Source: Alphaproteobacteria bacterium
GTDB taxonomy: Bacteria; Pseudomonadota; Alphaproteobacteria; SP197
Direction: 5' to 3'
Assembly (NCBI GenBank): GCA_965200495.1
Contig: CBDAUG010000001.1
Location: 2,324,885 to 2,388,884, forward strand
DNA: 64,000 nt
Below the pieces are notes generated by a model, which worked only from the letters and a program-made list of their open reading frames with translations, searched no databases and was not told the DNA's origin. Below, one piece after another: positions 43,301 through 61,556 of the stretch (the first letter of the stretch is position 1; every line of letters starts with the position of its first letter). Made by a program: the position numbers and the translations under genes.

Positions 43301-43425
43301 CCTGATCCTTGCCCGTGCCGCCGGCCCGCCGTCATCGACGGGCCCGGCGCTTCCACCGTCGGCGCGGGCGGGATAGACAGTCTCGACGCGCCGGCCCCGC
43401 ATTCCCGACAAAGGATAACGCCGCC

Positions 43426-43695: not shown

Positions 43696-43754
43696 TGCGC
43701 CGATCTGCTTGTCCGAGTATGGCGAAACCCCTATAGTGCGGAGATGGCAGCGGC

Positions 43755-44111: not shown

Positions 44112-44115
44112 CGCC

Positions 44116-44454: not shown

Positions 44455-44459
44455 CGCCC

Positions 44460-45030
44460 TGCAAGGGAACACCGCAGGGGGCGATTGTCTCGGCCTGCCT
44501 TGCGAACGTTTGCCTGCACCACGTGCTCGACGACTGATTCCACAACACATGGCGCAAGCGGATGGCCGGAGGCGACACCATCATCGTGCGGTACGCCGAT
44601 GACTTTGTGTGCGGCTTCCAGCATCCGGGCGATGCGAAGCGCTTCCTCCGGGACCTCGGGGAGAGGCTGGCCCATTATGGACTGGCACTGCATCCGGACA
44701 AGACCCGGCTCATCGAGTTCGGCAGGTTTGCGAGAGTGAACCGCCGCAAGCGGGGGCAGGGCAAGCCGGAGACGTTCGACGTCCTCGGCATGACGCATTT
44801 GTGCGATCAGTCGAGGACGGGCAAGTTCAGGGTCAGTCGCAAGCCCTCCCGGAAACGGGCGGGTCAGCCGCACCCTGCGGCGGATCAAGGAAGAGCTGCG
44901 CATGCGGTGGCACGACAACCGGCACAAGACGGCCAAGTGGATGGGGCGGGTCATCACCGGCTGGCTCAATTACTATGCCGTGCCGGGGAGCGGCCCGGAC
45001 TTGCAGAGGTTCCCATACCACTGCAGGTGA
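44460..45030 (+). pseudogene. group II intron reverse transcriptase/maturase remnant (5'-truncated: RT domains 4-7 plus X domain, frameshifted)
   Basis: QGNTAGG / SACLANVCLHHVLD ... IVRYADDFVCGF ... LALHPDKTRLIEF ... RRIKEELRMRWHDNRHKTAKWMGRVITGWLNYYAVPG, spread over three frames. Confidence 0.8.
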
Positions 45031-45162
45031 TGGCTTCTGCGTGCCCTTCGGCGACGGTCCCACGTGCGGCCTGCCTGCGTCGAAGCTGCGCCGGCCGCTC
45101 TCCGGCAGCGCGGGTCGTTTACCGGGTGGCGGAGACCGCGGCCCCGCGGGCGACGCAGCCGG

Positions 45163-45444
45163 TCAGAGACCGAGTTCGCTGTGCGAGCCGAGGCGCACGA
45201 GATCGAGGTGCTCGGCGTCGGGCCTGCCGTAGATCAGCACCAGGTCGGGCCGGACATGGCAGTCCCGGTGGTCCTTCCATTGCCCGCCAAGCGCGTGGTC
45301 GCGGTGGCGCGGCGCGAGCGCCCGGTCCTCCGCCAACTCGGCCACGACACGGGCCAACTCGGCGTCCATGGTCCTGGCGAAGCGGCCTCTCTTCTCGCGC
45401 CGGTAGTCCCGTTTGAAGGCCGCGGTCCGCCTAATCCTCCGCAT
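45163..45444 (-). CDS. yafQ: YafQ-family toxin (RelE superfamily)
   Basis: The product begins MRRIRRTAAFKRDYRREKRGRF. It contains RDHALGGQWKDHRDCHVRPDLVLIYGR and ends HLDLVRLGSHSELGL. Confidence 0.88.
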   Translation of the reverse strand: MRRIRRTAAFKRDYRREKRGRFARTMDAELARVVAELAEDRALAPRHRDHALGGQWKDHRDCHVRPDLVLIYGRPDAEHLDLVRLGSHSELGL

Positions 45445-45688
45445 GGAGGTCGGCCATCAGGCCGTCGACGTCGCCGACCGTGACCAGATCGCCCCGCCGC
45501 GCCGCCTCCATGGCCGCGACGGTCTCCGCGTTCGGCACCAGGGGCTCGAAGGGCAGGCGTTTCTCGGCCGCGATCCGCACCATCATCAGGCGGAAGGCGT
45601 CCGAGACGGTGAGGCCGATCGCGTCGAGCACGGCGGCGGCCTCCTCCTTGGTCTTCTCGTCGATGCGGGCCCGAACGACGGTATGCAT
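45431..45688 (-). CDS. dinJ: DinJ/RelB-family antitoxin
   Basis: The product begins MHTVVRARIDEKTKEEAAAVLDAIGLTVSDAFRLMMVRIAAEKRLPFEPL. It overlaps the yafQ start. Confidence 0.88.
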   Translation of the reverse strand: MHTVVRARIDEKTKEEAAAVLDAIGLTVSDAFRLMMVRIAAEKRLPFEPLVPNAETVAAMEAARRGDLVTVGDVDGLMADLHAED

Positions 45689-45790
45689 GCCTCGATCCCC
45701 CCTGTTGGGCCACAATGTAGCCTGTTCGGATCGGCGGTGTCCATGCCGCCAGCGGCAGCAGGCCCCGGCCCTGCTTCGCAGCGACCGCGA

Positions 45791-46576
45791 TCAGATCCGG
45801 TTCGCCGCGGCCTCCATATATCGCAACCGGTCCACGATCCATCCGAACGTCGGCGCGTCACCCAGGATCATGTCGCGCATGGCCCGGTAGTCCCGCGCGA
45901 CGGCCGCGTGCAGTTCGGGTTGCGGGACCAGCCGGAGCGATCCCGGAATGGCTTCCTCGAACCGTTTCCAGGCCTGTCGGAAGGCGATGAGATTGTGGGT
46001 CCGGACCGCGTCGAGCAGGGCGGTGTCGGCAAGCGCGGACTCGCCGGTTGCGGACGCCGCGATCATCGCGGCGTCGTAGTAGTGGCGCGAGACCCGGTCT
46101 CTGTCCGCCGGCAGCCACCCGGCGTCGCGACAGCGACAGTGCAGGCCGTGCAGGATGAGGAGCTTCTCCCAGAAGGTCCGCTCCGGCGCGAGCGTCGCGA
46201 CGCTGCCGACGCCGCACCGCCAGTCCGGGAGGTCGTCTGCGATGCAGGGGTAAATGTCGCGGACAACGCCGGGGTCCACGGCCGAGCGCGCCCCGGCCTC
46301 GATTTTCACGCGCGGCGGCACATAGGCGGCATCGGCGCCGGGATAGAGGGCGGGATAGGCGACCAGGAGCGTCTGCCCGCCGGCGTCGTCCGGGTCGGCC
46401 TCAAGGACGCATCCCTCCGTCAGCCCGCCGACCGCTGCCGTCAGGGCGGCTTTCAGGTCGCCCTGGACATGGCGGCCGCAGGCCCGCGCCAGCTCGTCGA
46501 ACAGCGCGCTCCGGCGCTTGTTCGACAGACCGGTGGCGGGTCGTCGGGTCGCGCTCGCCGGCGAAGCCCAGCCCAT
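45791..46576 (-). pseudogene. AbiEii/AbiGii-family nucleotidyltransferase toxin, N-terminally truncated, no AbiEi partner
   Basis: Middle and C-terminal pattern VKIEAGARS...ERTFWEKLLILHGL...SRHYYDAAMI. The NTase N-terminus is missing. It abuts the end of the IS1380 remnant. Confidence 0.6.
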
Positions 46577-46639
46577 CTTTACGCTTGATCAGCGCTGAAA
46601 CTTCGGCTAGCCGCCTTTTCTCATCGTTCCGCCAGAAGG

Positions 46640-48262
46640 CGGGTTAAGGGGCTGCATGGTGCGCCCTGGGCGGCGTCATGGCCGTGTGAGCCTGCCGCAT
46701 GGAGGCCCGGAGGCACGGAGTGACGTGTGACCGGGGTGTGCGGGGACCGGCAGAGGTCCTCTGACGGCGTCGGTGGCGTGTTCCAGGCAAGCGCATCCAC
46801 ACTCCTGGTTTCCGGGAGCATGAGGCAGAAAGACGCGTGGCGGGAAGGAAGATCAGCCCGGCGCCAGCATCTTCCATGCGGCGGCAAAGGCGGCCTTGTC
46901 GGGACAGGCGTTGGACATGGCGATGTGGATGCGGCGTGCGGAGACCCGCACTCACAGCACCGATCCGGATGAGTTTCCAAGGTGAGCGTGGCAGGGCTGG
47001 CACGACCGAGCGGGGTCCTTTGCGAGGCTGCGCCGCAGGCGGTTGGAGAGACCATGGGCGAAGGCCGACAAGACAGAGCCGGACGACGTTGGCATCAAGG
47101 AGGTTCGATGACGAGCGTGCGGCGAAGAGATCGCAACCGACCTCTTTGACACGATTGTCCGCATCGCCCCTGGCGCAGGAGAAGTCCTCGTAGAGGGCCT
47201 GGCCGGGGCGGTCGAGCGAGGTGACGATGGTACGGCTGTTCTCCTTGCAGGGCTGGCCGTCGCCCTGCCCGGCAAGCGCCTCGGCCTTGGCAATCACCCG
47301 ACGCTCGGCGGACCAGGACTCCTGCGTCCTATAGCGGAAGGTGCAGAACCGGCGGCATGCCCGGCCGGTCTCCAGGGTCTCGGCCATGGCCTCCTCCATA
47401 GCCTGTGCACGCAGCGTCGCCAGCCTGGCGTTGCGGGCCAGACCCAGCACATCGTCGACGTTCTCCTCATGCTCGATGACCGTCATGATGGCGTCGCGGC
47501 AGAAACCCGAGTCGGTGCGCACGATGATGCGCGTCGTCGGCCACCTGACGCGGATCCACAGCGATCACGCCCTCAAGTTCCTCCCTGATCCCGAAAGCCG
47601 CATCCTTCGCCGCGGTGCGCAAGCGCACCAGAACCGGGTGCCGGTCGACGCACATCAGCACCGGCAGGTAACAGGACCGCGGTAGTCACCATGGTCGAAG
47701 CGCTGCTCCTGGGTGCCGTGCAGTGCAAAGTCCGTGGCGTCGATGTCGAGGACGATCTCGAAAGGGCTCTTCCTCGTCCTCTTCATGAAGCAGCTCCACC
47801 AGAAGGTCGTCCATCTTCTCGAAGTCGGCGACGATCTTCGAGGGCCTTCGTGCCATCCATGCCCACAGGCCGCCAGTTCCAGGCGGTTCAGCGTGCTCTT
47901 GCCCGCCAGGGGTTCGCAGTCCTCGCGTCTGCTCTCCAGGCACCCCAGCACCGCTCCGGCCACAGGATCCTTGGCCGAACTCGTCTGTGGTCGTTGAGAT
48001 CGTCAAGACCGGTCAGGAGACCCAGGATGCGCTGGCCCACCAGGGTGCGCACCTCGTGGACGACCAGCGCGCGATTGCGCGCATCGTCGAAGCACGCGGC
48101 CACGCGCGCGAAGAGATCGAGCGATCTCTCGGCAAGGCCGACGAGCAGGAGCCCGCCATGGGAGGTGATGGTACCGCCCGAGACGTCGGCTTCGATGCGC
48201 CCTGGCCTGGCGCCGTGCGGGGTTGGACAGGAGAACTTGGCCGGGATACACTGTGTTGTCAT
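46640..48262 (-). mobile_element. IS1380-family insertion sequence, near full length, with its transposase split over at least 4 frames
   Basis: Minus-strand ORFs 47888-48262 (MTTQCIPAKFSC...GGTITSHGGLLL...LDDLNDH), 47655-47963 (AGKSTLNRLEL...FEIVLDIDATDFALHG), 47467-47661 and 46644-47522 (FRYRTQESWSAERRVIAKAE...YEDFSCARGDADNRVKEVGCDLFAARSSSNLLDANVVRLCL). Confidence 0.8.
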
Positions 48263-48263
48263 G

Positions 48264-48323
48264 AGGAACGCCTCTGTCTCTTGTGTTGTTGGTCTTATAA
48301 CAACAGATTACAGAGATTTCCTC
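48264..48323. repeat. 60-nt imperfect palindrome between the IS1380 start and the symporter gene stop
   Basis: gaggaacgcctctgtctcttgtgttgttgg tcttataacaacagattacagagatttcctc. The arms are gaggaa/ttcctc, ctctgt/acagag and ttgtt/aacaa. Confidence 0.55.
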
Positions 48324-48356
48324 ATGGCGCCAACAAGTTAGTATGCACAATCCGGG

Positions 48357-50228
48357 CTAGCGTTCCCGGAGCCGCGAGAGACTTGAAGCGATCCAGCCAG
48401 GAGTGCGTTCGCCCGGAAGTGATGGTTCGTCTTCGCTGCGGGCGAGTGTTCTCAGACCGTCTTCGGTGGTTGATCCCAGCCGGGTGGGGTAGGCGAGCCA
48501 CCACACCAGGGGTACGCCGATCATCCAGAAGAAGATCTGCCACACCCAGAGGGAAGAAAGGCCGAGTGCAGCCGCCTCGTCCACGAAGATCGGCTCGATG
48601 AAGAATGTATTGCCCAGAATGGCGCCTGGACCCAGCGCGAAGAACGCCCAGATCAGCACCAGGGACCATGTCGCGGTTCTCGAAGCCGGTCTGCCGAATG
48701 GCACGCGCCACGATGCCCGGAACTCGCCGTGCAGGCGATCGCGAACGTCACGTCCGGCACTGCGTCCGGTGAAGATGGAGACGAGAAGGACGGCAACGAC
48801 GTTGCACATCAGCCCCCAGGCAGCCGAATGGACTGTCAGGGGCCAGCGACCCCAGGGCAGGTCGACGAACAGCCCCTCGAAGAACACGAGTCCGGGAGGT
48901 TCGGTGAAGACGACAACAAGTCCGCCCAGTATGACGCCGGTCAGCACGGCACCGCGGCTGATCCATGGTATGAAGGCGAAGCCCAGAAGGGCAGGGGCCA
49001 GCTGCACCGACAGGGGCAACACCGCGCTGGCGAGGATTGCCGAAGTGAGCGGCAAGAATGCCGCCAGGATCGCCACTGGAATGAAGGCACCGGCCAGGGC
49101 AATGCGTGTTGCCAACCGCTGCTCTTGAGGGGTGAGCCCCGGAAGGACATCGTGAAACAGCAGGTCCCGCGCGAGCTGCAGGGTTCCCCCGGTGACGAAG
49201 AAGGCGACCGTCAGCTGGGCGGCGACGACAAGGCCGAGAATTGCGACCGCTCCGGAAAGCACATCCACCCCGGCCAGCACTGCGACAAGGGTGGCCACGT
49301 CGCCGTCCATGCGTGCAGCAAGGAAAGGGATGGCAAGCACCAGAACGGCCCCGACAAGTCCCGCCATGAGCCATACGTGCGTCACCGCGAAGGCACGTCC
49401 CGATCCGGTGGTCATGGCGAGATGGAGAAACGTCGGCGACAGCACAATGCCGACCATGATGAGGGCTGCTGACATGATGCCGACAGTGGTGAAGATACCG
49501 CCAGCCGGCATCTCCTTGCCCGCACCTGCAGCATACTGCACGACACCTGGAATGCGGTCGGCGAGAATGCCGTCGGCCACCGGGATCGACGTTGTCAGGA
49601 ACCCCGGGTCCGCAAGCATGCCTTCGCCGAAGAAGAGTGCGGTCACGATGGCGACGACGACAATGGCGGATTGCATTGCGGCGACCAGGACGACGGCGCG
49701 CCACCCGCCGATGACAGCGGGCACGAAGAGCGTGAAGGCAAGTGTCCAGATGGCGCCCTGGCGCGGTATGGCGCCATCCGTCGCCGTATCGATGATGGTG
49801 CCTGCCTCGGCCAGCACATGGGCCGCGAAGGGAAGGGTGAAGAGCGCTGTCAGTGCGACTGCGAAGAGGCGCAAGGCGGTGCTTCGGTAGTACCAGCCGA
49901 TCATCAGCCCGGGACTGGCCAATCCGGTGATGCGTGCTCCCAGCCACAAGCGCTTGAGGACAAGAATGGCGGCCAGCGCTGCGATGATGATGCCGACGCC
50001 AACATGACTGGCCTGCAGTCCGTAGCGCTCGACGAGGGCGATATGGCTTGTCAGACCGAATCCGGCGAGCACCACGCCGGACGCCGTGAACGCGAAGGCC
50101 CAACCGGGAATGTCGTTGCCGCCGTCGAGAAATGTTTCGGGTGCGCGGCCAACGCGCGTGACCATGGCGGCAATGTACACACCATAGAGTGCCAGCACGG
50201 CAGCGGCTGTGGCGAATGCTGTCGTCAC
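48357..50228 (-). CDS. sodium:solute symporter (SSS) family transporter
   Basis: About 13 TM. GTG start at 50228 overlapping the stop of the upstream gene (GTGA). The first roughly 135 codons of ORF 48357-50633 are non-hydrophobic and were rejected. Confidence 0.7.
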   Translation of the reverse strand: MTTAFATAAAVLALYGVYIAAMVTRVGRAPETFLDGGNDIPGWAFAFTASGVVLAGFGLTSHIALVERYGLQASHVGVGIIIAALAAILVLKRLWLGARITGLASPGLMIGWYYRSTALRLFAVALTALFTLPFAAHVLAEAGTIIDTATDGAIPRQGAIWTLAFTLFVPAVIGGWRAVVLVAAMQSAIVVVAIVTALFFGEGMLADPGFLTTSIPVADGILADRIPGVVQYAAGAGKEMPAGGIFTTVGIMSAALIMVGIVLSPTFLHLAMTTGSGRAFAVTHVWLMAGLVGAVLVLAIPFLAARMDGDVATLVAVLAGVDVLSGAVAILGLVVAAQLTVAFFVTGGTLQLARDLLFHDVLPGLTPQEQRLATRIALAGAFIPVAILAAFLPLTSAILASAVLPLSVQLAPALLGFAFIPWISRGAVLTGVILGGLVVVFTEPPGLVFFEGLFVDLPWGRWPLTVHSAAWGLMCNVVAVLLVSIFTGRSAGRDVRDRLHGEFRASWRVPFGRPASRTATWSLVLIWAFFALGPGAILGNTFFIEPIFVDEAAALGLSSLWVWQIFFWMIGVPLVWWLAYPTRLGSTTEDGLRTLARSEDEPSLPGERTPGWIASSLSRLRER

Positions 50229-50686
50229 AAGTGTGAGCGATCTCGGCGCACCTCGGAAGATGGCCGCGGATTGTTGTCGCGGATGATGTCGAATTTTTCG
50301 AACGCAGCGCGTGCGCCATGGCGTGTCACCATGGTCAGGGCTGCGATCACGACGAGAGCCGTCATGCCCATTGCAATGGTGAGAAAGTGGGATTCGTAGA
50401 ACCCGTCTACCAGAACCATTGCGCCAGCAAAGGCATTCAGCGCTGCAAGAAACAGGACCATACCGACACCGGTCTCCCGCGCCGTGAATCCGGTTCCCAG
50501 AGCAGCGTTGACAATGATGTGACCGGCATATCCGGCGAGGATGATGAGAAACCCTCCGGCAACCCACCACGATCCGTCGGTGGCGAACCCGTGATGGAAC
50601 AAAACAGACGAGACGAGGCCGAGAGGCAGCCAAAGGGCCATGACCAGGGCATGACGGTCAAGCCGGGCCTGTTTTCCGGACACCAC
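50225..50686 (-). CDS. small 4-TM membrane protein, probable symporter-associated subunit
   Basis: 153 aa, hydrophobic, translationally coupled to the SSS gene. Confidence 0.6.
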   Translation of the reverse strand: MVSGKQARLDRHALVMALWLPLGLVSSVLFHHGFATDGSWWVAGGFLIILAGYAGHIIVNAALGTGFTARETGVGMVLFLAALNAFAGAMVLVDGFYESHFLTIAMGMTALVVIAALTMVTRHGARAAFEKFDIIRDNNPRPSSEVRRDRSHL

Positions 50687-50697
50687 TGCTCGCTACC

Positions 50698-52896
50698 TCA
50701 GGTATCGTCGCCGTGCGTATTCTTCGGCGCGCTCTCGGGAAAGTTGCGGAAAGACATGCCGCCGGCGGATCCCAGATTCTTGAGCGGCAACCCGATCTCC
50801 TCCATCAGTCCATCGACGAACGCCACCTGCGTGCGGTACTTCATGGCCGAGTTGACCACCCGGTCCGAAACATTGTCGGACCCGCTTCCTGCCAGCCCGC
50901 CTGCGCCCTCCGACGGACTGTTCAGCCCGGGCAGGCCGTCAACCTGGAGAATCTTGATGGATTCGATATTCTCCATCGGCCTCACCGATTCGCGGATCAC
51001 TTCTGGCAGCGTCCTGACGAGGTGCTCGTAGATGGCGCTGCGACGACTCTCGTCGGTGCGCATGTTCTCGGCCTCGTTGAGCTTCCTGTGGCCGTCGGCG
51101 TCAGTCTGGTAGCGCACCTCGGCAGCTTTCGATTCAGCAATCTCGGCTTCGGCTCTCCTTTCCATGGCGACCTTGTGGCCTTCGGCATTCCGCACGAGTC
51201 GCATGTACTCGCGCTCGACCTTGGCCTCGGCGTCAATGATCTCGATACGCTTGTTGCGTGCCGCGATCTCCTCGGCCCGGACCGAATCGATCCGGGCTTC
51301 CGTGGCGGCAAGGCTGCGCCGCGCCTCGGCTTCACTGGTGAGTGCGACGGCTTCCTCGATCTGCTTGTTGATCACGGCGATCAGGCGCTCCTTGTCAGCG
51401 ATCTCGATCTGCATGTCCTGTTCGATCTCGAAGCGGTCGATGAACTTGCGTGCCGCGATACGCATTTCCTCAAGCGCCCTGTTGGCAGAGATCGCTGCGT
51501 CCTCGGTGTTTCGGAAACTTCCGGTCTCGGCGAGCTTGATGGCCTGCTGCCTCGCGATGTCGCGTTCCGACACCTCCTGATCCGTCTGGAGGCGTGCCAT
51601 TTCTACGTCGAGGCGCTTGGAGATTGCTGCGCGCTCTTGTTCGCCCGCCGCCTGCTCTGATGAGACCCGGACCTCCTTCTCGGCCTCGACTCCGAGGAGT
51701 TCGATTTGCCTCTCCTTGGAGATCCGTTCCGCTTCGACTTCCCGTTCCCTATCAAGGCGGGCCTTCTCAACCTCGGAGTGGGATTGCGAATCGAAGACTT
51801 CGATTTCCATCTGAGACCTGATGGATGCTTCACGGATCTGGCGTTCACGCTCGATCCGCTCTGCCTCGATCTGCTGGCGGCTGTGGATGCGTTCTGTTTC
51901 GAGCGTCGAATGGGTTTCGATGTCGACCAGTTCCGTCTCGCGCTGCTTCTCGATCTCCTGGGTGCGGATATGGTTCTGTGAGCGGATGCGTTCGAGTTCG
52001 ATGGCCTGTTCCTTGGTGATGCGCAGGAGCTCGCTTTCCTTGTCCGCCTTGAGTTTGGCCTCGACCACGGCGATCTCTGAACTGGAGCGCTCCGCTGCGA
52101 CCTCGGCGAGTTGCATGGCCTTGCGGTTTTCGATGTCCCGGACCTGATTGATCCGTGCGATTTCCAGGTCGCGGTCGATCTCGAGTGCTCGCTGTTCCGC
52201 CTCGAAATCCCTCATCTTGATATCGATACGGGCCTCGTTTTCGATCTTGTTGCGCAGTTTGCGGCGATCCTCGACCTGCTCGGTCAACTGTGTGAGACCT
52301 TCGGCGTCAAAGGCGTTGGAAGGGTTGAAGACCCCGATGTCTGACTGGTTGAGAGATGTCAGCGATGCGTTCTCAAGTTCGAGTCCGTTGCTCTCGAGAG
52401 TGCCAGCAGCCAGTTCTGCGGCCTGGCGGATGTATCCGCCGCGATCCTGGTGGATTTCCTCCATGGTCATGCGGGCGGCGACAGCTGCCATGGCATCGAC
52501 AAAGCGGCCGTGAATGACTTCCTTGACAGCCAGCGCGTTCTGGGTTTGGGCGCCAAGCGTGCGCGCGGCGGTGGAAACCCCGTCGCGTGTCGCGATGACG
52601 CGGACAAAGTACTCTGCGACCAGATCGATCCGCATCTTGTTCTTCGTGATCAGCGATTGTTCGCCAGTGCGCCGGACCTCGATCGGGATGGCGTTCATGT
52701 TGACGACAGTGATGTCGTGGATGATCGGGATGACGAGAGCGCCGCCCCCCATCACGACTTTCTCGCCGCCAGCGCCCGTGCGCACAAAACTCTGATCCTT
52801 CGATGAATGACGATAAAGCCAGTGCAGCAGATAAACCCCGACAGCGATCAGGATCGTCAACAGAATGATGATTGCGATAGCGTCAGCACCGGTCAT
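50698..52896 (-). CDS. flotillin-family (SPFH/band 7, YqiK-like) protein with long coiled-coil
   Basis: N-terminal TM followed by an SPFH domain. There is an extended E/R/K-rich coiled-coil region. 732 aa. Confidence 0.82.
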   Translation of the reverse strand: MTGADAIAIIILLTILIAVGVYLLHWLYRHSSKDQSFVRTGAGGEKVVMGGGALVIPIIHDITVVNMNAIPIEVRRTGEQSLITKNKMRIDLVAEYFVRVIATRDGVSTAARTLGAQTQNALAVKEVIHGRFVDAMAAVAARMTMEEIHQDRGGYIRQAAELAAGTLESNGLELENASLTSLNQSDIGVFNPSNAFDAEGLTQLTEQVEDRRKLRNKIENEARIDIKMRDFEAEQRALEIDRDLEIARINQVRDIENRKAMQLAEVAAERSSSEIAVVEAKLKADKESELLRITKEQAIELERIRSQNHIRTQEIEKQRETELVDIETHSTLETERIHSRQQIEAERIERERQIREASIRSQMEIEVFDSQSHSEVEKARLDREREVEAERISKERQIELLGVEAEKEVRVSSEQAAGEQERAAISKRLDVEMARLQTDQEVSERDIARQQAIKLAETGSFRNTEDAAISANRALEEMRIAARKFIDRFEIEQDMQIEIADKERLIAVINKQIEEAVALTSEAEARRSLAATEARIDSVRAEEIAARNKRIEIIDAEAKVEREYMRLVRNAEGHKVAMERRAEAEIAESKAAEVRYQTDADGHRKLNEAENMRTDESRRSAIYEHLVRTLPEVIRESVRPMENIESIKILQVDGLPGLNSPSEGAGGLAGSGSDNVSDRVVNSAMKYRTQVAFVDGLMEEIGLPLKNLGSAGGMSFRNFPESAPKNTHGDDT

Positions 52897-52949: not shown

Positions 52950-53639
52950 TCAGAACCGTTCCTGACCTGCGACAGCCAGGATGATGAGCGAGGGCACAAT
53001 CAGATTGATCAGGTCAAAGAGCGTGTAGAGTGCCACGATACTCGGTGACTGCCCTGTTGCGATCACCACATCGACGAAATGCAGGATGGGATAGATCGCC
53101 CAGCCGACGGTCATGATGAGGCGGATCCAGAAGTACCCCAGACGCACCGCGCGACTCTCCCGGCGCACGGTGTCGGCCAGGGGACCGAAGTAAAGTTCTC
53201 CCAGGATATAGAGCCAAAAGCCGATTGAGAGCAGAACACCGAGAGTCGGATTGAAGAAGCCTGCATCGCCGAGATAGCGCGCGAACACCATGAGCAGCGC
53301 GGCAGCTGTCGTGCGCCAGAAGATGCCCACGGGCGGTTTCGCCAGGGCGCGCACAAAGAAGTACATGGCCGCGACCTGGAGTGGGTGCACTGTAAACCAT
53401 GCGGCAAAGCGGATGCCCCCGCTTGATCCTCCCCCGTGCAGCCAAAGGGATGCCGCGCCGGCATAGTGCAACGCCGATGCCAAGGTGGCGACGGCCACCA
53501 TTGAGACCGGAATCCGCCAGTTATCCGCAGACCAGCTCAGGCCAGCGAGACATAGGACTGCAGTGGAGAAGGTGGCCAGCGCGGCGATGACGAAGCTGCT
53601 GGCAACGACGTGCTGCGAGGTATAGAGAACTCCGAACAT
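52950..53639 (-). CDS. microbial-rhodopsin-like 7-TM protein lacking the Schiff-base lysine
   Basis: Seven hydrophobic helices. TM3 reads IRFAAWFTVHPLQV (cf. bacteriorhodopsin RYADWLFTTPLLL). TM6 reads VGWAIYPILHF (cf. LWSAYPVVWLIG). TM7 reads LFDLINLIVPSL with no Lys. The only Lys in the protein lies in a loop. Confidence 0.55.
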   Translation of the reverse strand: MFGVLYTSQHVVASSFVIAALATFSTAVLCLAGLSWSADNWRIPVSMVAVATLASALHYAGAASLWLHGGGSSGGIRFAAWFTVHPLQVAAMYFFVRALAKPPVGIFWRTTAAALLMVFARYLGDAGFFNPTLGVLLSIGFWLYILGELYFGPLADTVRRESRAVRLGYFWIRLIMTVGWAIYPILHFVDVVIATGQSPSIVALYTLFDLINLIVPSLIILAVAGQERF

Positions 53640-53649
53640 GTCCCCCTCC

Positions 53650-55068
53650 CTAGACTTGTGTCCTGATGTGCGCCAAACGTCCGTAGAGAGCAACCATCGG
53701 CAGGATCAGAAGGCCGAAAATGAACTGCTGCCATTCGTATGCAAGTCCAATGCCGATCAGAAACGAGCTCAGCACCTGAAGCACAAGGACACCGATGATC
53801 GTGAACCCGTAGCCGCCGTAGCCGCCAAGCAAGGACGTGCCGCCAATCACGACGGCTGCCAGGGTCGTAAACAGGTAAGGATCGCCGACTCCGATGAAAC
53901 CACCCCCCGACCAGCCGAGAAGCAGCGCCCCTGTCAGGGCGGCGAACACTCCGGACAGAACATAGGCGAGGGTCCAGTAGGTGAATTCCGAGACGCCGAG
54001 CAGCTTCGCTGACTGGCGGTTGCCGCCAAGGCCGTAGAGGTGGCGTCCCCATGCCGTATGGCGCAATCCGGTGATGACAACCGCGGCAATGGCCACCCAG
54101 ATCAGGATGGTGGGTGGAAAGGCCATGCCGAAGGTCTCGCCGTTCATCGCTGCCAGATTCTGAAGCCATGGGGGAACCGTGCCGAAGACGTTACCACTGA
54201 ACGCCGTGCCGATTGATGTCAGGATCTGCACAAGACCGGCGATGCCGAAGCCGATACCCAGCGACACGATCAGCGCCTGGCCCTGTAGTTTGAAGCTCAG
54301 GACCCCGTTCAGCAGACCAATGAGACCACCGACAAGAAGAACGAACCCGAAGGCCACGTAGGAAGGAACACCGAGGCTGATCAGAAACAGCAACCCGATG
54401 TTTGCGGCACCGATCACGAAGGGGATCGAAAGGTCAAGTCCGCCCATGAGGGCCACCAGTGTCTGGCCGACGCAGGCGATGCCGAGGAAGGAGGCGAACA
54501 GCAGAATCGCCTTCACGTTGGTACCGGAGAGAAACCCGTCGATGGTGAACGAGGAGATGACGATCAGGGCCGCAAGCACGATCAGCCCGATAAAGGCGCT
54601 TCGTCCGTGGGCGAAGCGCCCTGATACCTTGAAGGCGAACAAAAGGATCGCCTCCAGAACCAGGAAGGCGACGAGATTGGTCACAGTCCGGAAGGACTCG
54701 ACCGAAGCGGTGACAAGGAGGTAGGCGACAAGCAGCAGGCCCATGGCGATGATCATCACGCGGTTCGACTGCCACACGCCCCTTGCCCCGCTGGCAGGTG
54801 CCCTGCTGGCAGGTGCCCCGATGCCAGTCCTGCGAGACTCGAAGATCACCACGATGTAGTTGAGGAGCCATAACAGCACGGCCACCGACACGACAGTGGA
54901 GACGATGACGTCCTGGGCCGCCAGCCCCTGAGCGAATCCGACGCCGAAGCCGATGGCGGCCACGATCAGTGCCGCAGCCAGGTTGATCCAGATCATGAAC
55001 GTCGAACGCGGGATGGGTATCAGCTGTGTCCTTGAACCGCGTTCGGCGAAAGGCTGTTCTTCAGTCAT
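53650..55068 (-). CDS. sugar ABC transporter permease (RbsC/AraH-like core with N-terminal extension)
   Basis: 472 aa with about 10 TM. The C-terminus reads ...GGTSLLGGYGGYGFTIIGVLVLQVLSSFLIGIGL, as in monosaccharide ABC permeases. Confidence 0.78.
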   Translation of the reverse strand: MTEEQPFAERGSRTQLIPIPRSTFMIWINLAAALIVAAIGFGVGFAQGLAAQDVIVSTVVSVAVLLWLLNYIVVIFESRRTGIGAPASRAPASGARGVWQSNRVMIIAMGLLLVAYLLVTASVESFRTVTNLVAFLVLEAILLFAFKVSGRFAHGRSAFIGLIVLAALIVISSFTIDGFLSGTNVKAILLFASFLGIACVGQTLVALMGGLDLSIPFVIGAANIGLLFLISLGVPSYVAFGFVLLVGGLIGLLNGVLSFKLQGQALIVSLGIGFGIAGLVQILTSIGTAFSGNVFGTVPPWLQNLAAMNGETFGMAFPPTILIWVAIAAVVITGLRHTAWGRHLYGLGGNRQSAKLLGVSEFTYWTLAYVLSGVFAALTGALLLGWSGGGFIGVGDPYLFTTLAAVVIGGTSLLGGYGGYGFTIIGVLVLQVLSSFLIGIGLAYEWQQFIFGLLILPMVALYGRLAHIRTQV

Positions 55069-56432
55069 GGTGCCATGCCTTCCAGCAGCGTCACGTCACC
55101 CTGGACCATCACCAGCGTGAACAGCGCGATTACAAGCGCCCCAAGCAGGACGTAGGCGAAGAGACCGAGTCTCTGCCGGCGCGCCTCGGCGCTCATCAGC
55201 CTTGCCGCCAGCGTCGCTGCGGCCGCGGCGATGACGACGGCAAAGACCATTCTCTGGAGAAGCGAGAACTGCGGAGCTGCCGCCTCGACTCCCGAGGGGA
55301 CGAACAGAAGATAACGTGTCGCAAGATCGGCGCCGTGCGCGACGACGAGACCTTCCGACGGAAGGGAGGTGCTGGAGGTTGCCACATGAAGCAGGATACC
55401 GCCAACGATGGTGCCGAGAACCAGAAACGCGCTCCACGGCGAAATGAACGCAATGTGCCGGGCAACGATCGGGACCAGAAGGGTCAGCAACAGGGACAGC
55501 ACCAGGATGATGCCGTAGCTCATCTGCGTGACGAATGCCTGTATTGCGCCAAAGTTGAGCGTGGCGAGGACGTAACCGATCAGGTAGAGGTTCAGTGCAC
55601 CGAGAAGGGCGCCGGTGACACCGCCCCGGCCGCCTGCCAGGCTCACACCGCCGAGTACAAGCGCGGTGACGGCCGTCAGGGTCATGGTCGTACCCTGGGT
55701 CGGGTCCCCTGAGGCAATCAGAGCAGTATAGCAAATTGCACCCAATCCGACGAACAGGCCGGCGATGACATGGGCGCCGATGCGCACGACATAGATGCGC
55801 ACTCCGCTCGTCCAGGCCGCACGCTCGTCGTATCCCATCATCCTCAAGTTGCTGTAGAACCGCGTCAGCGTGAACAAGAGCCAGCCGACGGTGGCGATCG
55901 CGACAATCAGAAGCACCGGCGAGAAGATCGTCGTGCCGCGGCCCCAGCTTGCCATCCACTCCGGCGCCAAACCACCCGGGCGTGGGAGGATGACGAGGTT
56001 GATACCCGACAGCGCCAGGAATCCGGAGAGGGCGACGATGATCGGCTGAACCCGGACCCAGATCACCACAATCGCGAAGAGCAGCTGATAGAGAACGCCC
56101 AATCCGAGCGCCACCAGGAAGACGCCGAACGGGCCGGTCACCAGATCCAGCATGTTCAGCTTGACGATCGTGACGTTGATGAAGGCAAGTAGTGGGCCGA
56201 CGGCAAGATCGATGGTGCCGCGGCCCGCGATGGCAAGTGACATCAGCGCGTAGGTCGCAAGTGTAAGCGGAGCGGCAACGATGATGGCGCTGCCGAAACC
56301 CGACATTGAGACGAGATGCGGACCGCGGATGGCGGCTGCCGACAGCAGCACCATGATGAGCACGATCGGCACCAGGAGATAGGTGCTTGTCGTCGATGAC
56401 CGTTCCGACATCCCGTTCGGGCCCGCAGCCAT
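55065..56432 (-). CDS. sugar ABC transporter permease (second subunit, with C-terminal extension)
   Basis: 455 aa, highly hydrophobic. It overlaps the downstream permease by 4 nt. The start may be the internal Met at 56411. Confidence 0.72.
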   Translation of the reverse strand: MAAGPNGMSERSSTTSTYLLVPIVLIMVLLSAAAIRGPHLVSMSGFGSAIIVAAPLTLATYALMSLAIAGRGTIDLAVGPLLAFINVTIVKLNMLDLVTGPFGVFLVALGLGVLYQLLFAIVVIWVRVQPIIVALSGFLALSGINLVILPRPGGLAPEWMASWGRGTTIFSPVLLIVAIATVGWLLFTLTRFYSNLRMMGYDERAAWTSGVRIYVVRIGAHVIAGLFVGLGAICYTALIASGDPTQGTTMTLTAVTALVLGGVSLAGGRGGVTGALLGALNLYLIGYVLATLNFGAIQAFVTQMSYGIILVLSLLLTLLVPIVARHIAFISPWSAFLVLGTIVGGILLHVATSSTSLPSEGLVVAHGADLATRYLLFVPSGVEAAAPQFSLLQRMVFAVVIAAAAATLAARLMSAEARRQRLGLFAYVLLGALVIALFTLVMVQGDVTLLEGMAP

Positions 56433-56459: not shown

Positions 56460-57398
56460 TCAAAGTTCAATCACGCGGCGCGGGTCCGCCTTCGAGGCTT
56501 GCTGTGGCCGGACGACAGGACCGGACAGCGAGCGACCTTCCCCGCGTCGCTGTGGATCATTCTGCAGAATCTTCTTGAGAACGGGCGCCACGACATTCTT
56601 GAACTTTTCCGGATCCTCTGAGGTCGGAAAGTGGCCACCGGAGAAGATGATGCACTCGCAGCCCTTGACCTTCTCCGCTGTGCGCTCTGTCATTTCTGGT
56701 GTACAGGCGAAGTCGTAGTCGCCGGTCATGAAGTAGATGGGCAGCCGCCCCGAAATCCTGTGCACCTTGTCACGGTAGTCGCTATCGACGGAATAGTAGT
56801 AGAGATCCCCCTTGAAGACGCCCGGTCCGCCCTGCGCATAGTACCACCACGTTTCCCAGCGATACTGGTCCGGACTCTCCGGCGACATCAGGCCGAACAC
56901 GGATGTCGCCACGGCCTCGCCTCCATGAACGTGCGGATGATGCAATGGATCGATCCACCACCCCGGTGAGTGGTCGCAGGCCTCCAGTGCAATCAGCGCC
57001 GAAAAATCGTTCTCGTGGTTGAGGGCGAGTTCAAGGCAGATGTTGCCGCCCATGGACTGGCCCATGATGACCGGCTTGTCGAGGTCGAGGGCCCGGCAGA
57101 AGGCGACAATGAACTCTGCGTAGAACCTCGACGTCAGCTTGTATTCATCCTCCATCAGGTAGAAGTCCTCGGGCGGGATCGATTTCCCGTGCCAGGGAAG
57201 ATCAAACGCAATCATGCGGAAATTCGATGAGAAGTCCGGTTCGCAAAGCTGATGGCGATACTGGCGACAGTCGGTGCCGGCGGTATGCAGGCAGACCATG
57301 GGAATACCTTCGCCAGTTTCCTCGTAATAGGTCCTGTAGGTCTTTCCTTCGCAGGTCACGTAAACGTAGCGTCCGATGATGGGATCATGCGGGTTCAT
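56460..57398 (-). CDS. alpha/beta-fold hydrolase
   Basis: GQSMGG nucleophile elbow. The product begins MNPHDPIIGRY. GC is lower (about 55%) than the surroundings. Confidence 0.75.
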   Translation of the reverse strand: MNPHDPIIGRYVYVTCEGKTYRTYYEETGEGIPMVCLHTAGTDCRQYRHQLCEPDFSSNFRMIAFDLPWHGKSIPPEDFYLMEDEYKLTSRFYAEFIVAFCRALDLDKPVIMGQSMGGNICLELALNHENDFSALIALEACDHSPGWWIDPLHHPHVHGGEAVATSVFGLMSPESPDQYRWETWWYYAQGGPGVFKGDLYYYSVDSDYRDKVHRISGRLPIYFMTGDYDFACTPEMTERTAEKVKGCECIIFSGGHFPTSEDPEKFKNVVAPVLKKILQNDPQRRGEGRSLSGPVVRPQQASKADPRRVIEL

Positions 57399-57412: not shown

Positions 57413-57817
57413 TCAGATTTCGCGCATGAGTGCAAGCATGCGGGTCAGTGCCCGCACGTTTTGCCAGAACGACAACTGATTGCCGTCGATAACCAGCTGC
57501 TTGTGCAGTGGATGCGCCATGGCCCAGATGTCGTTGAACATGGGCGGGGGCACAGGCTGGCTGAACTTCTCCCATGCGCTTGAGGGTGCACGCAGGGCAA
57601 ACTCGAAACCAAAGTCGTTCGGCGTCAAGCCCTCGGAGATGCGAACGATCTTGCCTTTCTGGACCTCGAACAGGAATTCGGTGTCGTCAAAGGCGATCAG
57701 GAACCGGAGATTGAAGAATCTGCCGATGGTCGGCAGGATCCGGTCTTCATTGACGCGACGCGCCCAGCGCTCGACCCATTCAATGTCGAAACTGGATCTG
57801 CGGCCATATCTGCTCAT
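57413..57817 (-). CDS. hypothetical protein (134 aa), within ABC operon
   Basis: Internal Met of ORF 57413-58309. The remainder of that ORF overlaps the PEBP-coding 3' part of the upstream gene and was rejected. Confidence 0.45.
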   Translation of the reverse strand: MSRYGRRSSFDIEWVERWARRVNEDRILPTIGRFFNLRFLIAFDDTEFLFEVQKGKIVRISEGLTPNDFGFEFALRAPSSAWEKFSQPVPPPMFNDIWAMAHPLHKQLVIDGNQLSFWQNVRALTRMLALMREI

Positions 57818-57854: not shown

Positions 57855-60056
57855 TCATGCAGCGGGTAACGGAGTGCGGGCGGGTCCGTAGACCGCGGTA
57901 AACGATGCCTGGTCGATTGCGACCGGGAGGACCGCTGCGCCGAAAGCGGCGAGGTCCGCGTCTGCTGCAATGTCAATTCCGGGCACCTTGAGTGCGTAAA
58001 GCGTGAAGACATAGCGATGCTGTTTGTCAGGAGGCCACGGACCGCCCCAGCCTCGGCCGAAGCCTGGAATGGCGAAGGCCACAAAGTCGCAGTTGAGTTC
58101 GATCGCGGCGCCCGGCAGCGCCTGGCCGCTGGCTCCTTCGGGCAGTTCGCGGATGTGATCGGGAATGTTGCAGACAAGCCAGTGAGCGAAACTTCGCGGG
58201 AAACTGAAGGCTTCAGGCACGTCCGGGTCGGTGACCGACAGGGCGAAACTTCGCGTGCCGAGCGGTACGCCAGACCAGCAGAGAGCGGGCGATGTGCTGC
58301 TCGATTCACAGAACCGGTCGGGTATCACCGAATCCTGGGGAATATCCGGCGCATGGAAGAGAAAGTCTGGCGGGCCCACCTGATCCTGCCAGTCGTTTGA
58401 GGACAACAGCGTCACCGGTCGGCCGTGTGGCCGTCCTTGCGCCACAAACGGCGTCGTCGTCGATGGTTGCCCTTGTCGGTCAGGATCATGACGTCGGTCA
58501 GGATCATGACGTCGGTTAGGATCATGACCGTCTGATGACGAGACCGTGCCGCCACGCCGGCCGAACATGGCATTGAGAATATCGTGACCGTTGAGCGGCG
58601 AGGAGAACTCTGCCGATATGGTGCCGTGACGGAACACATGCACCCGGTTACAGAGACCGAGAAATTCCTCGATTTCGGACGACAGGAACACCACGGCGTT
58701 GCCGCGCGCCACGAAGGCCCGGAGATTGAGATAGAGGTCACGTTTGGCACCGACGTCAATGCCGCGGGCAGGATCATTCAGTGCCAGGATCGAGGGTTTT
58801 TCTGCGAAGGCGCGCGCGATCAGGACCTTTTGCTGATTGCCGCCCGAGAGGGATGTGACAAGATCCTCGGATGATCCCATCCGCACATCAAGTCGCCCCG
58901 ATTCCCATTCGAAGACCGGGCGGAGTTTTGTGCGGTTGATCAGGTTGAGCCAGCCTCCGGCCCGGTACTCTCGGTAGACAGGCAGCAACAGGTTTTCGAA
59001 GATGTTGAGATTGCCGAAGATTCCTTCCTTCGCGCGGTCGCCGGAGACATAGGCAATGCCGCTCTCGCGAGCCGTCCGGAGATTGTCGATCGCGACTGCC
59101 GTGTTGTTTCGGACAATGGCGATGCGGCCCTCCGCCATCGTCTGTACCCCCGCAATGGCGCGGACAAAGTCGGCGTGTCCGTGCCCGTCGAGTCCTGTGA
59201 TTCCGACGATCTCGCCGGGATGGATTGTCAAGTCGAAAGAACTGGCGCCGGCCCAGACCCGTGCTTCGATAATGCGCAGAAGAGGGTGATCCGAAAGGCG
59301 GGAAACCGGGTCCTGCGATGGGCTCTGCCGGTGCTGCCCTTTCCCGGCGATCATGTCCACAATCCGCGCTTCGCTGATGTCCTGCCCGGCCAGGGTGCCG
59401 ATTGCGCTGCCGTCACGCAGCACGGTGGCGCTGTCGGCAATCCGCACCAGTTCGGCGATACGGTGGGTGACGATCATGATCGTGCAACCTCCGGCCTTCA
59501 TGCGGCGCATTTTGGTGAACAGCCGTTCCGTGGAGTCGAAGTCGAGTGCGGCCGAGGATTCGTCGAGGATCAGAACCTTGGGATCGGTCAGGATCGCCCG
59601 GGCGATGGTGACCCACTGTTTGATCGACAGGGGAAGTTCGCCAACGGCAACATCAAGGTCGAGTTCGAAACCCAGGAGTTCAATCATCAGTTCGCCCGCT
59701 GCGCGGTAGCGCTCCTCCCTTGCAACGGGAGTGCCAAGCAGGCTGTCTGCTCCGAGATACAGATTGTCGAGAACTGAGCACTCGTCGGCGACCAGAACTT
59801 CCTGGAAGACATTCGAAATGCCGAGTTCGCGGGCTTCATAGGGAGAGCTTGCGGATTTGCCGAGAATCGAGACGTGCCCACGATCCGGGATCAGCACCCC
59901 GGAGATCACCTTTGCGAGCGTGCTCTTGCCGGATCCGTTGCCGCCAATGATGGCATGAATCTCGCCTGCCGACGCGCGCAACGAGACACCGTCGAGGGCA
60001 ACGGTCGGGCCGAAGGCCTTGCTGACGTCGGAAATCTCGACGGTAGCTGCGACCAC
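57855..60056 (-). CDS. sugar ABC transporter ATP-binding protein (tandem NBDs) fused in frame, via a repeat linker, to a YbhB/YbcL (PEBP) family domain
   Basis: Two Walker A/LSGG-type NBDs (GGNGSGKST..., LSGGNQQK) cover about 495 aa. A (HDPxRR)x3 linker follows. The C-terminal 186 aa has the PEBP pattern DPDVPEA...HWLVCNIP...PPDKQHRYVFTLYAL. An alternative internal GTG start for the PEBP part lies at 58415. Confidence 0.75.
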   Translation of the reverse strand: MVAATVEISDVSKAFGPTVALDGVSLRASAGEIHAIIGGNGSGKSTLAKVISGVLIPDRGHVSILGKSASSPYEARELGISNVFQEVLVADECSVLDNLYLGADSLLGTPVAREERYRAAGELMIELLGFELDLDVAVGELPLSIKQWVTIARAILTDPKVLILDESSAALDFDSTERLFTKMRRMKAGGCTIMIVTHRIAELVRIADSATVLRDGSAIGTLAGQDISEARIVDMIAGKGQHRQSPSQDPVSRLSDHPLLRIIEARVWAGASSFDLTIHPGEIVGITGLDGHGHADFVRAIAGVQTMAEGRIAIVRNNTAVAIDNLRTARESGIAYVSGDRAKEGIFGNLNIFENLLLPVYREYRAGGWLNLINRTKLRPVFEWESGRLDVRMGSSEDLVTSLSGGNQQKVLIARAFAEKPSILALNDPARGIDVGAKRDLYLNLRAFVARGNAVVFLSSEIEEFLGLCNRVHVFRHGTISAEFSSPLNGHDILNAMFGRRGGTVSSSDGHDPNRRHDPDRRHDPDRQGQPSTTTPFVAQGRPHGRPVTLLSSNDWQDQVGPPDFLFHAPDIPQDSVIPDRFCESSSTSPALCWSGVPLGTRSFALSVTDPDVPEAFSFPRSFAHWLVCNIPDHIRELPEGASGQALPGAAIELNCDFVAFAIPGFGRGWGGPWPPDKQHRYVFTLYALKVPGIDIAADADLAAFGAAVLPVAIDQASFTAVYGPARTPLPAA
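58476..58529. repeat. 3 x 18-bp perfect/near-perfect tandem repeat in the ATPase-PEBP linker (encodes HDPDRR units)
   Basis: tcggtcaggatcatgacg tcggtcaggatcatgacg tcggttaggatcatgacc. Confidence 0.85.
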
Positions 60057-60159: not shown

Positions 60160-61356
60160 TTACTGTGCGGCCGGATGCGATGCCGGATCGTACATCTCCG
60201 GATCTGCCGGGCGCAGGAAGAAGTTGTCCAGATATTCCTTGCCCGCCCAGGCTTCGACGCCGACATGGTACCAGTCTGCCGAGTTCTCGTCGCAGTCTTC
60301 AGGAATAGCCGCGAGCATCTGGTCCCTGTTCATCGATATGGGCTTGGCAAGGATCGACTGAACCTTGGGGCCCTGCCCCTGAAGTGTGCGCATCATGATG
60401 TTCCAGGACATCTCGAAATCGTCACCGGGAGGCCACGCATGGATCGCGCCCGAGACGTAGTCCGGATGGTTGCGCCAGTAGCAAAGGGCGCCGAGTTCGC
60501 TGCCGATGGTCACCGGCACCATGTCGCGACCCGACTGCTTCAGGGCACGCAACGCGCCAAGTTCGGAGGCGGACTGAATAATGATGCCATCGAGTTGGCC
60601 GGGGTTGGTCGCCATCCATTTCTGGATTTCGGCCTGGGCCACCTGGTCTGTCCACATTCCGGCGATCTGGCCGACAGTCTCGATATCCGGGTAGTCGGCG
60701 AGTGCTGCCTCAATGCCAACGTTCTGACTGTCAGAGGCCGATGTACCCGGGATTCCCTCGACATTGAGAATGTTGCCGACGCCGCCGATTTCGCTGGCCA
60801 TCCACTCGCCCATCATGCGCCCACCGACGACGAAGTTGGCCGACGAGTTCACCGAGTAGGGACTGGTCAGGTAACCGACCGCTGAAAACGTGGGGACACC
60901 GCGTTCGTAGGCATAGGCGACGGTCTGGTTGAGTGCCGTGGGATTCGAGCAGCAGACGATCAGTGCATCGACACCCTGGTCGACGAGCTGGCGCATTTGC
61001 TGGATCTGAACCGAATCGTTGAGGTTCGACTGCGTGATGACGACCTCTGAGACAAGACCGAGCGCGGTCCATTTTGGAATGATCTCGTTCTGCAGCCGGT
61101 TCATGACGGCGGCGCGCCAGGTGTTGCCGGCATAACTTGAGGCATAACCGATCTTCCATGGTGGCGGGTTCGGGGCGATGAAATCGCGATAGGGGCTTTT
61201 GCCCACAGGCTGGACCGGATCCATGAATGCCGGGTCGTAGAGTTCGTCGCGGATGTCTTCAGGCAGTTCTTCGACTCCGGCCGACACCGGTGCTGCGATC
61301 ATGGCCGATACGCAAACAGCAAGTGCCGGCAAGAATGCGGTCGTGCAGCGTTTCAT
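60160..61356 (-). CDS. sugar ABC transporter periplasmic substrate-binding protein
   Basis: Signal peptide MKRCTTAFLPALAVCVSAMIAAPVSAG. It has a periplasmic binding protein type I-like body. It is the first gene of the minus-strand cluster. Confidence 0.8.
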   Translation of the reverse strand: MKRCTTAFLPALAVCVSAMIAAPVSAGVEELPEDIRDELYDPAFMDPVQPVGKSPYRDFIAPNPPPWKIGYASSYAGNTWRAAVMNRLQNEIIPKWTALGLVSEVVITQSNLNDSVQIQQMRQLVDQGVDALIVCCSNPTALNQTVAYAYERGVPTFSAVGYLTSPYSVNSSANFVVGGRMMGEWMASEIGGVGNILNVEGIPGTSASDSQNVGIEAALADYPDIETVGQIAGMWTDQVAQAEIQKWMATNPGQLDGIIIQSASELGALRALKQSGRDMVPVTIGSELGALCYWRNHPDYVSGAIHAWPPGDDFEMSWNIMMRTLQGQGPKVQSILAKPISMNRDQMLAAIPEDCDENSADWYHVGVEAWAGKEYLDNFFLRPADPEMYDPASHPAAQ

Positions 61357-61556
61357 GGGTCCTCCCTTCAAGGTTCTGTTTCAACGGACCGACATGACTG
61401 CTGACGCTTCAGCGCGATGTCACTGCCGGCCCGCCCGGGAAATCTACACCACATCTGCAACAACGGAATAGTCCGGAGTAGGACGATCCCACGCTCAATT
61501 CGGGGACTGTTGTTGATACCACCTGTTGTTGCGTTGCATGCGCGCGGGCGCGGGAT

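Follow-up and report, generated by a model that had tools for sequence, protein, structure and literature searches.

We describe here a gene in a 64,000-nucleotide stretch of DNA from an alphaproteobacterium of the SP197 lineage (contig CBDAUG010000001.1 of GenBank assembly GCA_965200495.1, forward-strand positions 2,324,885 to 2,388,884; hereafter the window, in whose own coordinates all positions are given). The gene, at 52950..53639 on the minus strand, codes for a protein of 229 residues that is, with very little doubt, a type-1 rhodopsin homologue of the flotillin-associated rhodopsin (FAR or FArhodopsin) family, and more precisely of a lysine-less branch of that family in which leucine occupies the position of the retinal-binding Schiff-base lysine. 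FARs were defined by Haro-Moreno et al. (2023; PMC10308929) as paralogues within the proteorhodopsin family that are always encoded just upstream of flotillin. As both the family and its lysine-less variants, those with Leu included, have already been published, the window protein does not represent a novel type. The new observations are that Leu is fixed at the lysine position in combination with an invariant Arg121 signature, that the gene is under strong purifying selection, and that it belongs to a strictly syntenic, fully resolved operon of ten genes, five of which have homologues in the SAR11 FAR cluster. A further one is the occurrence of such genes in cultured bacteria that are not streamlined and, as a sister Arg-type cluster, on a conjugative plasmid, and together these observations bring the function of FAR within experimental reach. 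Taking the proposal as a whole, we think that the protein probably functions independently of light, as a membrane-integral client or partner of flotillin that has its former retinal pocket closed, forms an oligomeric ring and contributes to a microdomain around the uptake machinery encoded alongside it.

Fold and retinal-binding residues of the FAR protein

The family assignment draws on profile, sequence and structure comparisons. Among the Pfam profiles, Bac_rhodopsin (PF01036) was the sole family reported for the protein at E values up to 1, its 31.7 bits exceeding the gathering cut-off of 24.6 (E 1.4e-7); within the same limit neither the heliorhodopsin profile (PF18761) nor YhhN gave a match. 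When the sequences of the PDB were searched with phmmer, the top match was PsFAR, the FAR of Pseudothioglobus (9R21, 'flotillin-associated rhodopsin'; E 7e-31, 110.9 bits), with the proteorhodopsins at E ~1e-17 (best score 68.1 bits) and xanthorhodopsin (3DDL) at E 0.43. An AlphaFold2 model built on 64 homologues (mean pLDDT 86.1, pTM 0.83) displays seven long helices, spanning residues 9-33, 39-68, 76-97, 104-125, 131-158, 163-193 and 199-228. Foldseek comparisons of this model again ranked 9R21 first (probability 1.00, TM-score 0.88, root-mean-square deviation 2.3 Å, 227 columns), with the PsFAR double mutant, PsPR and green proteorhodopsin in the ranks that follow; the TM-scores to FAR and proteorhodopsin structures range from 0.84 to 0.89, and the top fold matches are type-1 rhodopsins throughout. 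An identity as heliorhodopsin or YhhN, which has neither a profile nor a fold match behind it, was ruled out.

The initial annotation of this locus, made from the letters of the sequence, had already called the product a type-1 rhodopsin homologue with seven helices. This is borne out by the above comparisons, with no other seven-transmembrane family giving a better match and no Lys being present in helix G. Its stricter label of an Rh-noK-type protein has to be given up, because the protein falls in the proteorhodopsin/FAR lineage (E 0.43 for xanthorhodopsin versus 1e-17 for the proteorhodopsins and 7e-31 for PsFAR). A neighbour-joining tree recovers the lysine-less proteins with Leu or Arg as one clade in 182 of 200 bootstrap replicates and the marine FARs as another in 184 of 200.

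The three rhodopsin motifs that the initial annotation had picked out in helices 3, 6 and 7 lie at residues 77-88 (RFAAWFTVHPLQ), 179-186 (GWAIYPIL) and 208-213 (FDLINL), respectively. By alignment to PsFAR and to proteorhodopsin, we established that residues R76, D79, H84, Q87, M90, E120, D209 and K213 of PsFAR correspond to R77, A80, H85, Q88, A91, R121, D209 and L213 of the window protein. Hence, the loss of the retinal Lys and of the D85 counter-ion, which had been read directly from the sequence, can be assigned to Leu213 at the Schiff-base position and Ala80 at the counter-ion position. The single Lys of the entire protein, likewise recognized at the outset as a loop residue, is K100, which the model puts in the C-D loop, after helix C (76-97) and before helix D (104-125). 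The DTE-type motif of the proton pumps is also missing, with A80, V84 and A91 at the positions concerned, and with it the proton-donor carboxylate is gone. Because the Lys is replaced by Leu, the protein is incapable of forming a retinal Schiff base; and because this replacement is combined with that of the counter-ion Asp by Ala and with a His and an invariant Arg at the two pocket-blocking positions, it is, as far as its sequence can tell, neither a photoreceptor nor a pump. Those two positions are known from PsFAR, which was solved as a retinal-free pentamer by Kovalev et al. (2025; bioRxiv 10.1101/2025.04.29.651185) and in which H84 and E120 jointly block the retinal pocket and abolish retinal binding. 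By analogy, His85 and Arg121 are likely to close the former retinal pocket of the window protein in the same way.

To place these substitutions in the context of the relatives, we used a search of 5.8 billion proteins, which gave 404 matches at E <= 1e-5, and a scan across the GTDB species, each represented by one genome, which confirmed a relative in 152 genomes, from 80 of which the loci were fetched. Residue counts from proteins refer to the best 120 of the 404 matches, which are 58-95% identical to the window protein. Among these, the Lys position is occupied by Leu without exception (121/121 proteins), and D209, N212, R77 and R121 do not vary; Ala or Gly occupies the counter-ion position, while position 85 is His in 103 proteins, Gln in 16, Leu in 1 and Tyr in 1. 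The genomic loci show the same pattern: Leu is found at the Lys position in 79 of 80, with Val in the remaining one, and across the clade one of A, G, S and T fills the counter-ion position, with Asp in 0/80 loci. Conservation peaks in helices D, E and F and in the D-E loop, with helix E being almost invariant. Upon clustering at 50%, the Leu-type clade reduces to a single representative, whose nearest full-length neighbour is an Arg-type lysine-less protein of 236 residues with 37% identity.

The open reading frame runs on the minus strand from an ATG at 53639 to a stop codon at 52950-52952, and the boundaries and the 229-residue product given in the initial annotation are correct. We favour this ATG over an upstream TTG at 53693 because the close homologues are likewise 229 residues long and begin with MFG. 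A Shine-Dalgarno sequence, GGGAGGGGG, can be read at 53641..53649 on the same strand; it occupies the 10-nt gap that separates the TAG stop codon (53650-53652) of the preceding permease gene from the FAR ATG, and this placement suggests that translation of FAR may be coupled to that of the permease.

The loss of the Lys, the counter-ion and the proton-donor residues, taken together, could be seen as the mark of a decaying relic, i.e. a former proteorhodopsin that has lost its function and is merely carried along. The evolutionary evidence renders this practically untenable: dN/dS lies between 0.01 and 0.13 in pairwise, unsaturated comparisons, the reading frame is intact in 80/80 of the species genomes fetched (227-229 aligned residues), and 53 columns are invariant across 64 sequences with identities down to 58%. 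A pseudogene was thus ruled out by the dN/dS values and the conservation, and the gene is clearly functional and under strong purifying selection.

The ten-gene operon and the proposed role of FAR

The ten genes of the operon share the minus strand, neighbours either overlapping slightly or being no more than 103 nt apart, and their order and strand are identical in the 80 loci wherever the contig extends. The counts given below are of loci with the gene out of the loci in which it could be assessed. The first gene encodes a periplasmic substrate-binding protein of the CUT2 sugar type (Peripla_BP_4; 60160..61371; 61/63). It is followed by a 733-residue ABC ATPase (57855..60056; 65/65), in which two nucleotide-binding domains (PF00005, E 4e-39) are fused to a C-terminal phosphatidylethanolamine-binding protein (PEBP) domain (PF01161, E 2.8e-31, residues 578-723). 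Then come an SCP2-like small protein of 134 residues (57413..57817; 69/69), an alpha/beta hydrolase of 312 residues (56460..57398; 69/69) and two CUT2-type ABC permeases with the BPD_transp_2 domain, permease 1 with 455 residues (55065..56432; 74/74) and permease 2 with 472 residues (53650..55068; 75/75), whose genes overlap by 4 nt. The FAR gene is next, and the flotillin gene (50698..52896; 732 residues) begins 53 nt downstream of it on the same strand; its product combines an SPFH/Band_7 domain (PF01145, E 9e-13) with a C-terminal Flot domain (PF15975, E 5e-30). The FAR-flotillin adjacency holds in 79/79 loci. The operon ends with a small hydrophobic protein of 153 residues that belongs to no known family (50225..50686; 75/75) and an SSS-like polytopic membrane protein of ~626 residues with an uncertain start (48357..50237; 73/73); Pfam and PDB sequence searches gave no match for either of these two conserved proteins. 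For the 153-residue protein an NfeD identity was considered and dropped, as it has no family match and its sequence looks hydrophobic throughout.

Terminator-like and promoter-like sites within the operon are no more numerous than in shuffled sequences, their counts lying at or below that background, and no Rfam RNA family was detected anywhere in the window. The setting described in the initial annotation, with ABC permeases on one side and flotillin on the other, stands insofar as two BPD_transp_2 permeases lie upstream and flotillin downstream; the presence of flotillin, however, is not the oddity that it was taken for, being the published hallmark of the family.

Two of the operon products contain putative lipid-binding modules. 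The PEBP domain is one of them; its fusion to the ATPase is retained in a typical related locus, and we know of no earlier description of such a fusion. The other is the SCP2-like protein, which returned no Pfam or PDB sequence match and matches a protein of the SAR11 FAR cluster (E 1e-20) that is assigned by InterPro to the SCP2 sterol-binding superfamily. Such a context raises the alternative of a retinal-independent lipid scramblase, in which the opsin fold would move lipids across the leaflets and, together with the PEBP, the SCP2-like protein and flotillin, build or feed a lipid microdomain. There is precedent for this, as a proteorhodopsin scrambles lipids without light or retinal, with physiological effects in E. 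coli (PMC10730872), following earlier reports for bovine opsin and bacteriorhodopsin (cited in PMC10730872); the near-invariance of helix E would also agree with it. The case nevertheless proceeds by analogy only. Scrambling is not a universal property of the rhodopsin folds, since heliorhodopsins are without it (PMC10730872), and the PEBP fusion is missing from the marine FAR clusters. We therefore regard a scramblase as an unlikely explanation.

The permeases are also unusual in their architecture. Relative to their RbsC-like cores, permease 2 has an additional hydrophobic extension of ~150 residues at the N-terminus and permease 1 one of ~140 residues at the C-terminus, and both are kept at full length across the loci; they could conceivably act as docking modules. 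If they did, FAR might be a ligand-sensing or regulatory seven-transmembrane subunit, whose remodelled pocket binds a small hydrophobic molecule (perhaps a substrate or a lipid) and thereby gates the ABC or the SSS-like transporter. Several features are compatible with this: an aromatic cage of W81, W142, W180, Y183 and P184 is kept, new invariant polar residues (R121, H187, D190 and N212) have appeared in the core, FAR and permease 2 are apparently coupled in translation, and the extra transmembrane segments of the permeases are conserved. A sensor comparable to G-protein-coupled receptors was also among the ideas raised by Haro-Moreno et al. (PMC10308929). On the other hand, the operon has no transducer or signalling gene, and an ABC importer is missing from the FAR clusters of marine hosts, which means that the role cannot be specific to that transporter. 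A sensor of this kind hence appears rather improbable to us.

We return to the partnership with flotillin as the reading that we prefer. Under this proposal, the operon would co-express FAR and flotillin with a sugar-type ABC importer, the SCP2-like protein, the hydrolase and the SSS-like permease. FAR would keep the seven-helix fold of the proteorhodopsins while working without retinal or light, form an oligomeric ring by analogy with PsFAR, and serve the flotillin scaffold as a membrane-integral client or partner, thereby helping to assemble or organize a membrane microdomain that surrounds the uptake proteins of the operon. The family identity, the missing retinal-binding residues, the purifying selection and the syntenic gene order are established by the data, whereas the closed pocket, the oligomeric state, the contact with flotillin and the scaffolding role are what we infer. 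The conserved helices D, E and F include helix E, and it is helix E, on the exterior of the pentamer, that Kovalev et al. singled out together with helix G as a candidate flotillin contact in PsFAR (10.1101/2025.04.29.651185). A non-photochemical role, which had been surmised at the outset, is indeed probable given the loss of Lys and counter-ion and the transporter/flotillin operon.

Certain points weigh against this proposal. Kovalev et al. saw no obvious adaptation for flotillin binding in PsFAR (10.1101/2025.04.29.651185), and a physical contact of FAR with flotillin or with the transporters is suggested here by gene context. The failure to bind retinal is likewise deduced from the sequence and from PsFAR, with which the window protein shares only 28-30% identity, and in some members of the clade His85 is swapped for Gln, Val, Leu or Ser. 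Moreover, the crude neighbour-joining tree unites the lysine-less clade with the marine FARs in just 29 of 200 bootstrap replicates; because of this weak union, it is the best-match scores and the shared gene context on which we base the family assignment.

Hosts, possible horizontal spread and genomic surroundings

The nearest genome to the window is an unclassified alphaproteobacterial metagenome-assembled genome (OZ242305.1), with 88% nucleotide identity across the operon. Beyond it, the hosts comprise many named bacteria, among them cultured species of Mesorhizobium (M. kowhaii, M. sophorae, M. waimense, M. cantuariense, M. robiniae, M. comanense, M. denitrificans and M. quangtriensis), Paracoccus haematequi, Roseovarius spp., Ruegeria sediminis, Microbaculum marinum, Pseudohoeflea, Albidovulum, Taklimakanibacter lacteus, Cypionkella, Pseudoxanthobacter and Shinella. 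Our literature search found no report of FARs in these cultured taxa. The published hosts of FARs are SAR11, HIMB59 and Pseudothioglobus (PMC10308929), and according to Kovalev et al. all FAR producers are uncultivated aquatic microbes, such that a surrogate host is needed (10.1101/2025.04.29.651185).

This host range bears on the function that has been published for the marine FARs, namely that of a proteorhodopsin helper, which would form hetero-oligomers with the proton-pumping proteorhodopsin in flotillin rafts and tune or boost it in dim light. The FAR and proteorhodopsin pentamers are indeed similar (10.1101/2025.04.29.651185), and all marine FAR hosts have a proteorhodopsin paralogue elsewhere in the genome (PMC10308929). 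As for the Leu-type loci, neither a partner rhodopsin nor a retinal pathway turned up in the 64-kb window, flanks of 10 kb around FAR in the 80 genomes contain no further rhodopsin gene, and a proteorhodopsin query against the 4.6-Mb replicon of Shinella sp. PSBB067 returns FAR alone. Furthermore, the sources of the hosts include soil and root nodules (Mesorhizobium), blood (the P. haematequi isolate) and desert soil. These host lineages are not known to use rhodopsins. From the host range and from the window, the 80 flanks and the one replicon, we judge the helper function to be quite improbable for the window protein.

We tentatively propose, as a possibility that falls somewhat short of likely, that the Leu-type FARs use neither light nor a proteorhodopsin partner and are retinal-free clients of the flotillin cage or lipid scramblases in a ten-gene operon for uptake or lipid handling, which would be spreading horizontally among Alphaproteobacteria of soil, rhizosphere and sea. 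If true, this would overturn the published hypothesis of a dim-light proteorhodopsin helper, and the field would gain hosts amenable to genetics, among them Mesorhizobium, Roseovarius, Paracoccus and Shinella. The conserved Leu-type clade argues that the family can fulfil its role without necessarily depending on light or on a partner proteorhodopsin. Cultured hosts with large genomes, root-nodule Mesorhizobium included, make knock-outs, localization and pull-downs feasible.

With regard to mobility, Pararhizobium gei has a conjugative plasmid of 272 kb, p2, that carries an Arg-type sister cluster (NZ_CP119410.1, 172749-191411), in which the order is SCP2-like protein, hydrolase, AttM-like lactonase, ABC system, 'bacteriorhodopsin', flotillin, two hypothetical proteins and an iron alcohol dehydrogenase. 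The SCP2-like protein and the hydrolase of p2 are 64% and 79% identical, respectively, to their counterparts in the SAR11 FAR cluster, which is strikingly high for such distant hosts. Such identities firmly link the lysine-less clusters with that of the marine FARs, and they suggest that FAR clusters have spread horizontally.

Two further occurrences were recorded. The replicon of Shinella sp. PSBB067 mentioned above (NZ_CP069303.1), which is listed as a 'plasmid' in PLSDB and carries little annotation, encodes a complete Leu-type operon. A Leu-type FAR with 60% identity is present on an 872-bp contig of the Firmicute Paenibacillus sp. SY21-1, and is probably a contamination. The public labels attached to the lysine-less FARs include 'bacteriorhodopsin', 'sensory rhodopsin' and 'blue-light absorbing proteorhodopsin precursor' as well as Gene Ontology terms for ion transport. 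Such mislabelling misleads surveys of phototrophy and could inflate the counts of phototrophy genes.

Beside the operon in the window, a segment of ~6 kb (42200-48360) is missing from the two nearest genomes, in which the FAR operon directly abuts an aminotransferase gene. It contains a reverse-transcriptase fragment (44562-45416, plus strand), an AbiEii toxin gene (45791-46576, minus strand) and a split DDE_Tnp_1_4 transposase (46644-47522 and 47888-48262, minus strand), and looks like the scar of a mobile element. The remainder of the window contains rpoBC, ribosomal-protein operons, secY, rpoA, pccAB, lipB, mgtE and an aminotransferase gene.

Comparison with known systems

The closest structurally characterized relative, PsFAR (9R21), shares with the window protein the seven helices, the His at the pocket-blocking position (H84 in PsFAR, H85 here), the conserved Q88, D209 and N212, the missing proton-donor carboxylate and a flotillin gene immediately downstream. 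In contrast to the window protein, it retains Lys213 and Asp79 (here Leu213 and Ala80), and its E120 corresponds to the invariant Arg here; the two proteins are 28-30% identical, and PsFAR comes from a marine gammaproteobacterium that is streamlined and uncultured and also carries a proteorhodopsin paralogue.

We compared the operon as a whole with the marine clusters using the FAR-cluster proteins of SAR11 AG-390-L03 (Table S2 of PMC10308929). The SAR11/HIMB59 cluster likewise has FAR directly upstream of flotillin on one strand, and the two share five homologous genes: FAR itself (30% identity, E 5e-31), flotillin (41%, E 3e-87), the SCP2-like protein (30%, E 1e-20), the hydrolase (44%, E 3e-79) and the SSS-like protein, which matches a sodium/solute symporter of SAR11 (28%, E 2e-27). 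However, the marine cluster extends over ~26 kb, contains carboxylase genes and a dimethylformamidase-like gene among others, and lacks an ABC importer. The window operon has its genes in a different order and contains, as an insertion, a CUT2-type ABC system whose ATPase bears the PEBP fusion and whose permeases are extended. The ABC importer is thus an addition relative to the marine FAR clusters, and only FAR, flotillin and an SSS-type permease are common to all the FAR clusters seen here.

Most of the freshwater relatives of FAR lack the helix-G Lys and have Q, T, L or R at that position (PMC10308929). They resemble the window protein in this lack and in being always adjacent to flotillin, and the window protein, too, is a Leu variant. 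The difference lies in the hosts and the gene context: the freshwater lysine-less FArhodopsins came from metagenomic contigs too short for taxonomy (PMC10308929), whereas the clade of the window protein is found in named and often cultured Alphaproteobacteria with genomes of 4-8 Mb, and its operon of ten genes is completely resolved. The Rh-noK proteins in the strict sense, which are xanthorhodopsin-related betaproteobacterial proteins encoded in tandem with a proteorhodopsin, provide another instance of the natural loss of the retinal Lys with retention of the rhodopsin fold. Unlike them, the window FAR lies outside the xanthorhodopsin lineage (E 0.43 in our search), has no neighbouring rhodopsin, and is altered in the pocket and the counter-ion as well.

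Finally, there are SPFH-domain proteins with operon partners of other kinds, such as the NfeD-type yuaF with floT in B. subtilis and HflK/C with FtsH. As in these pairs, the window operon encodes a membrane protein beside, and presumably co-transcribed with, an SPFH/flotillin scaffold, which suggests the relation of a client or a partner; however, the partner is in this case neither an NfeD protein nor a protease, but one with a rhodopsin fold.

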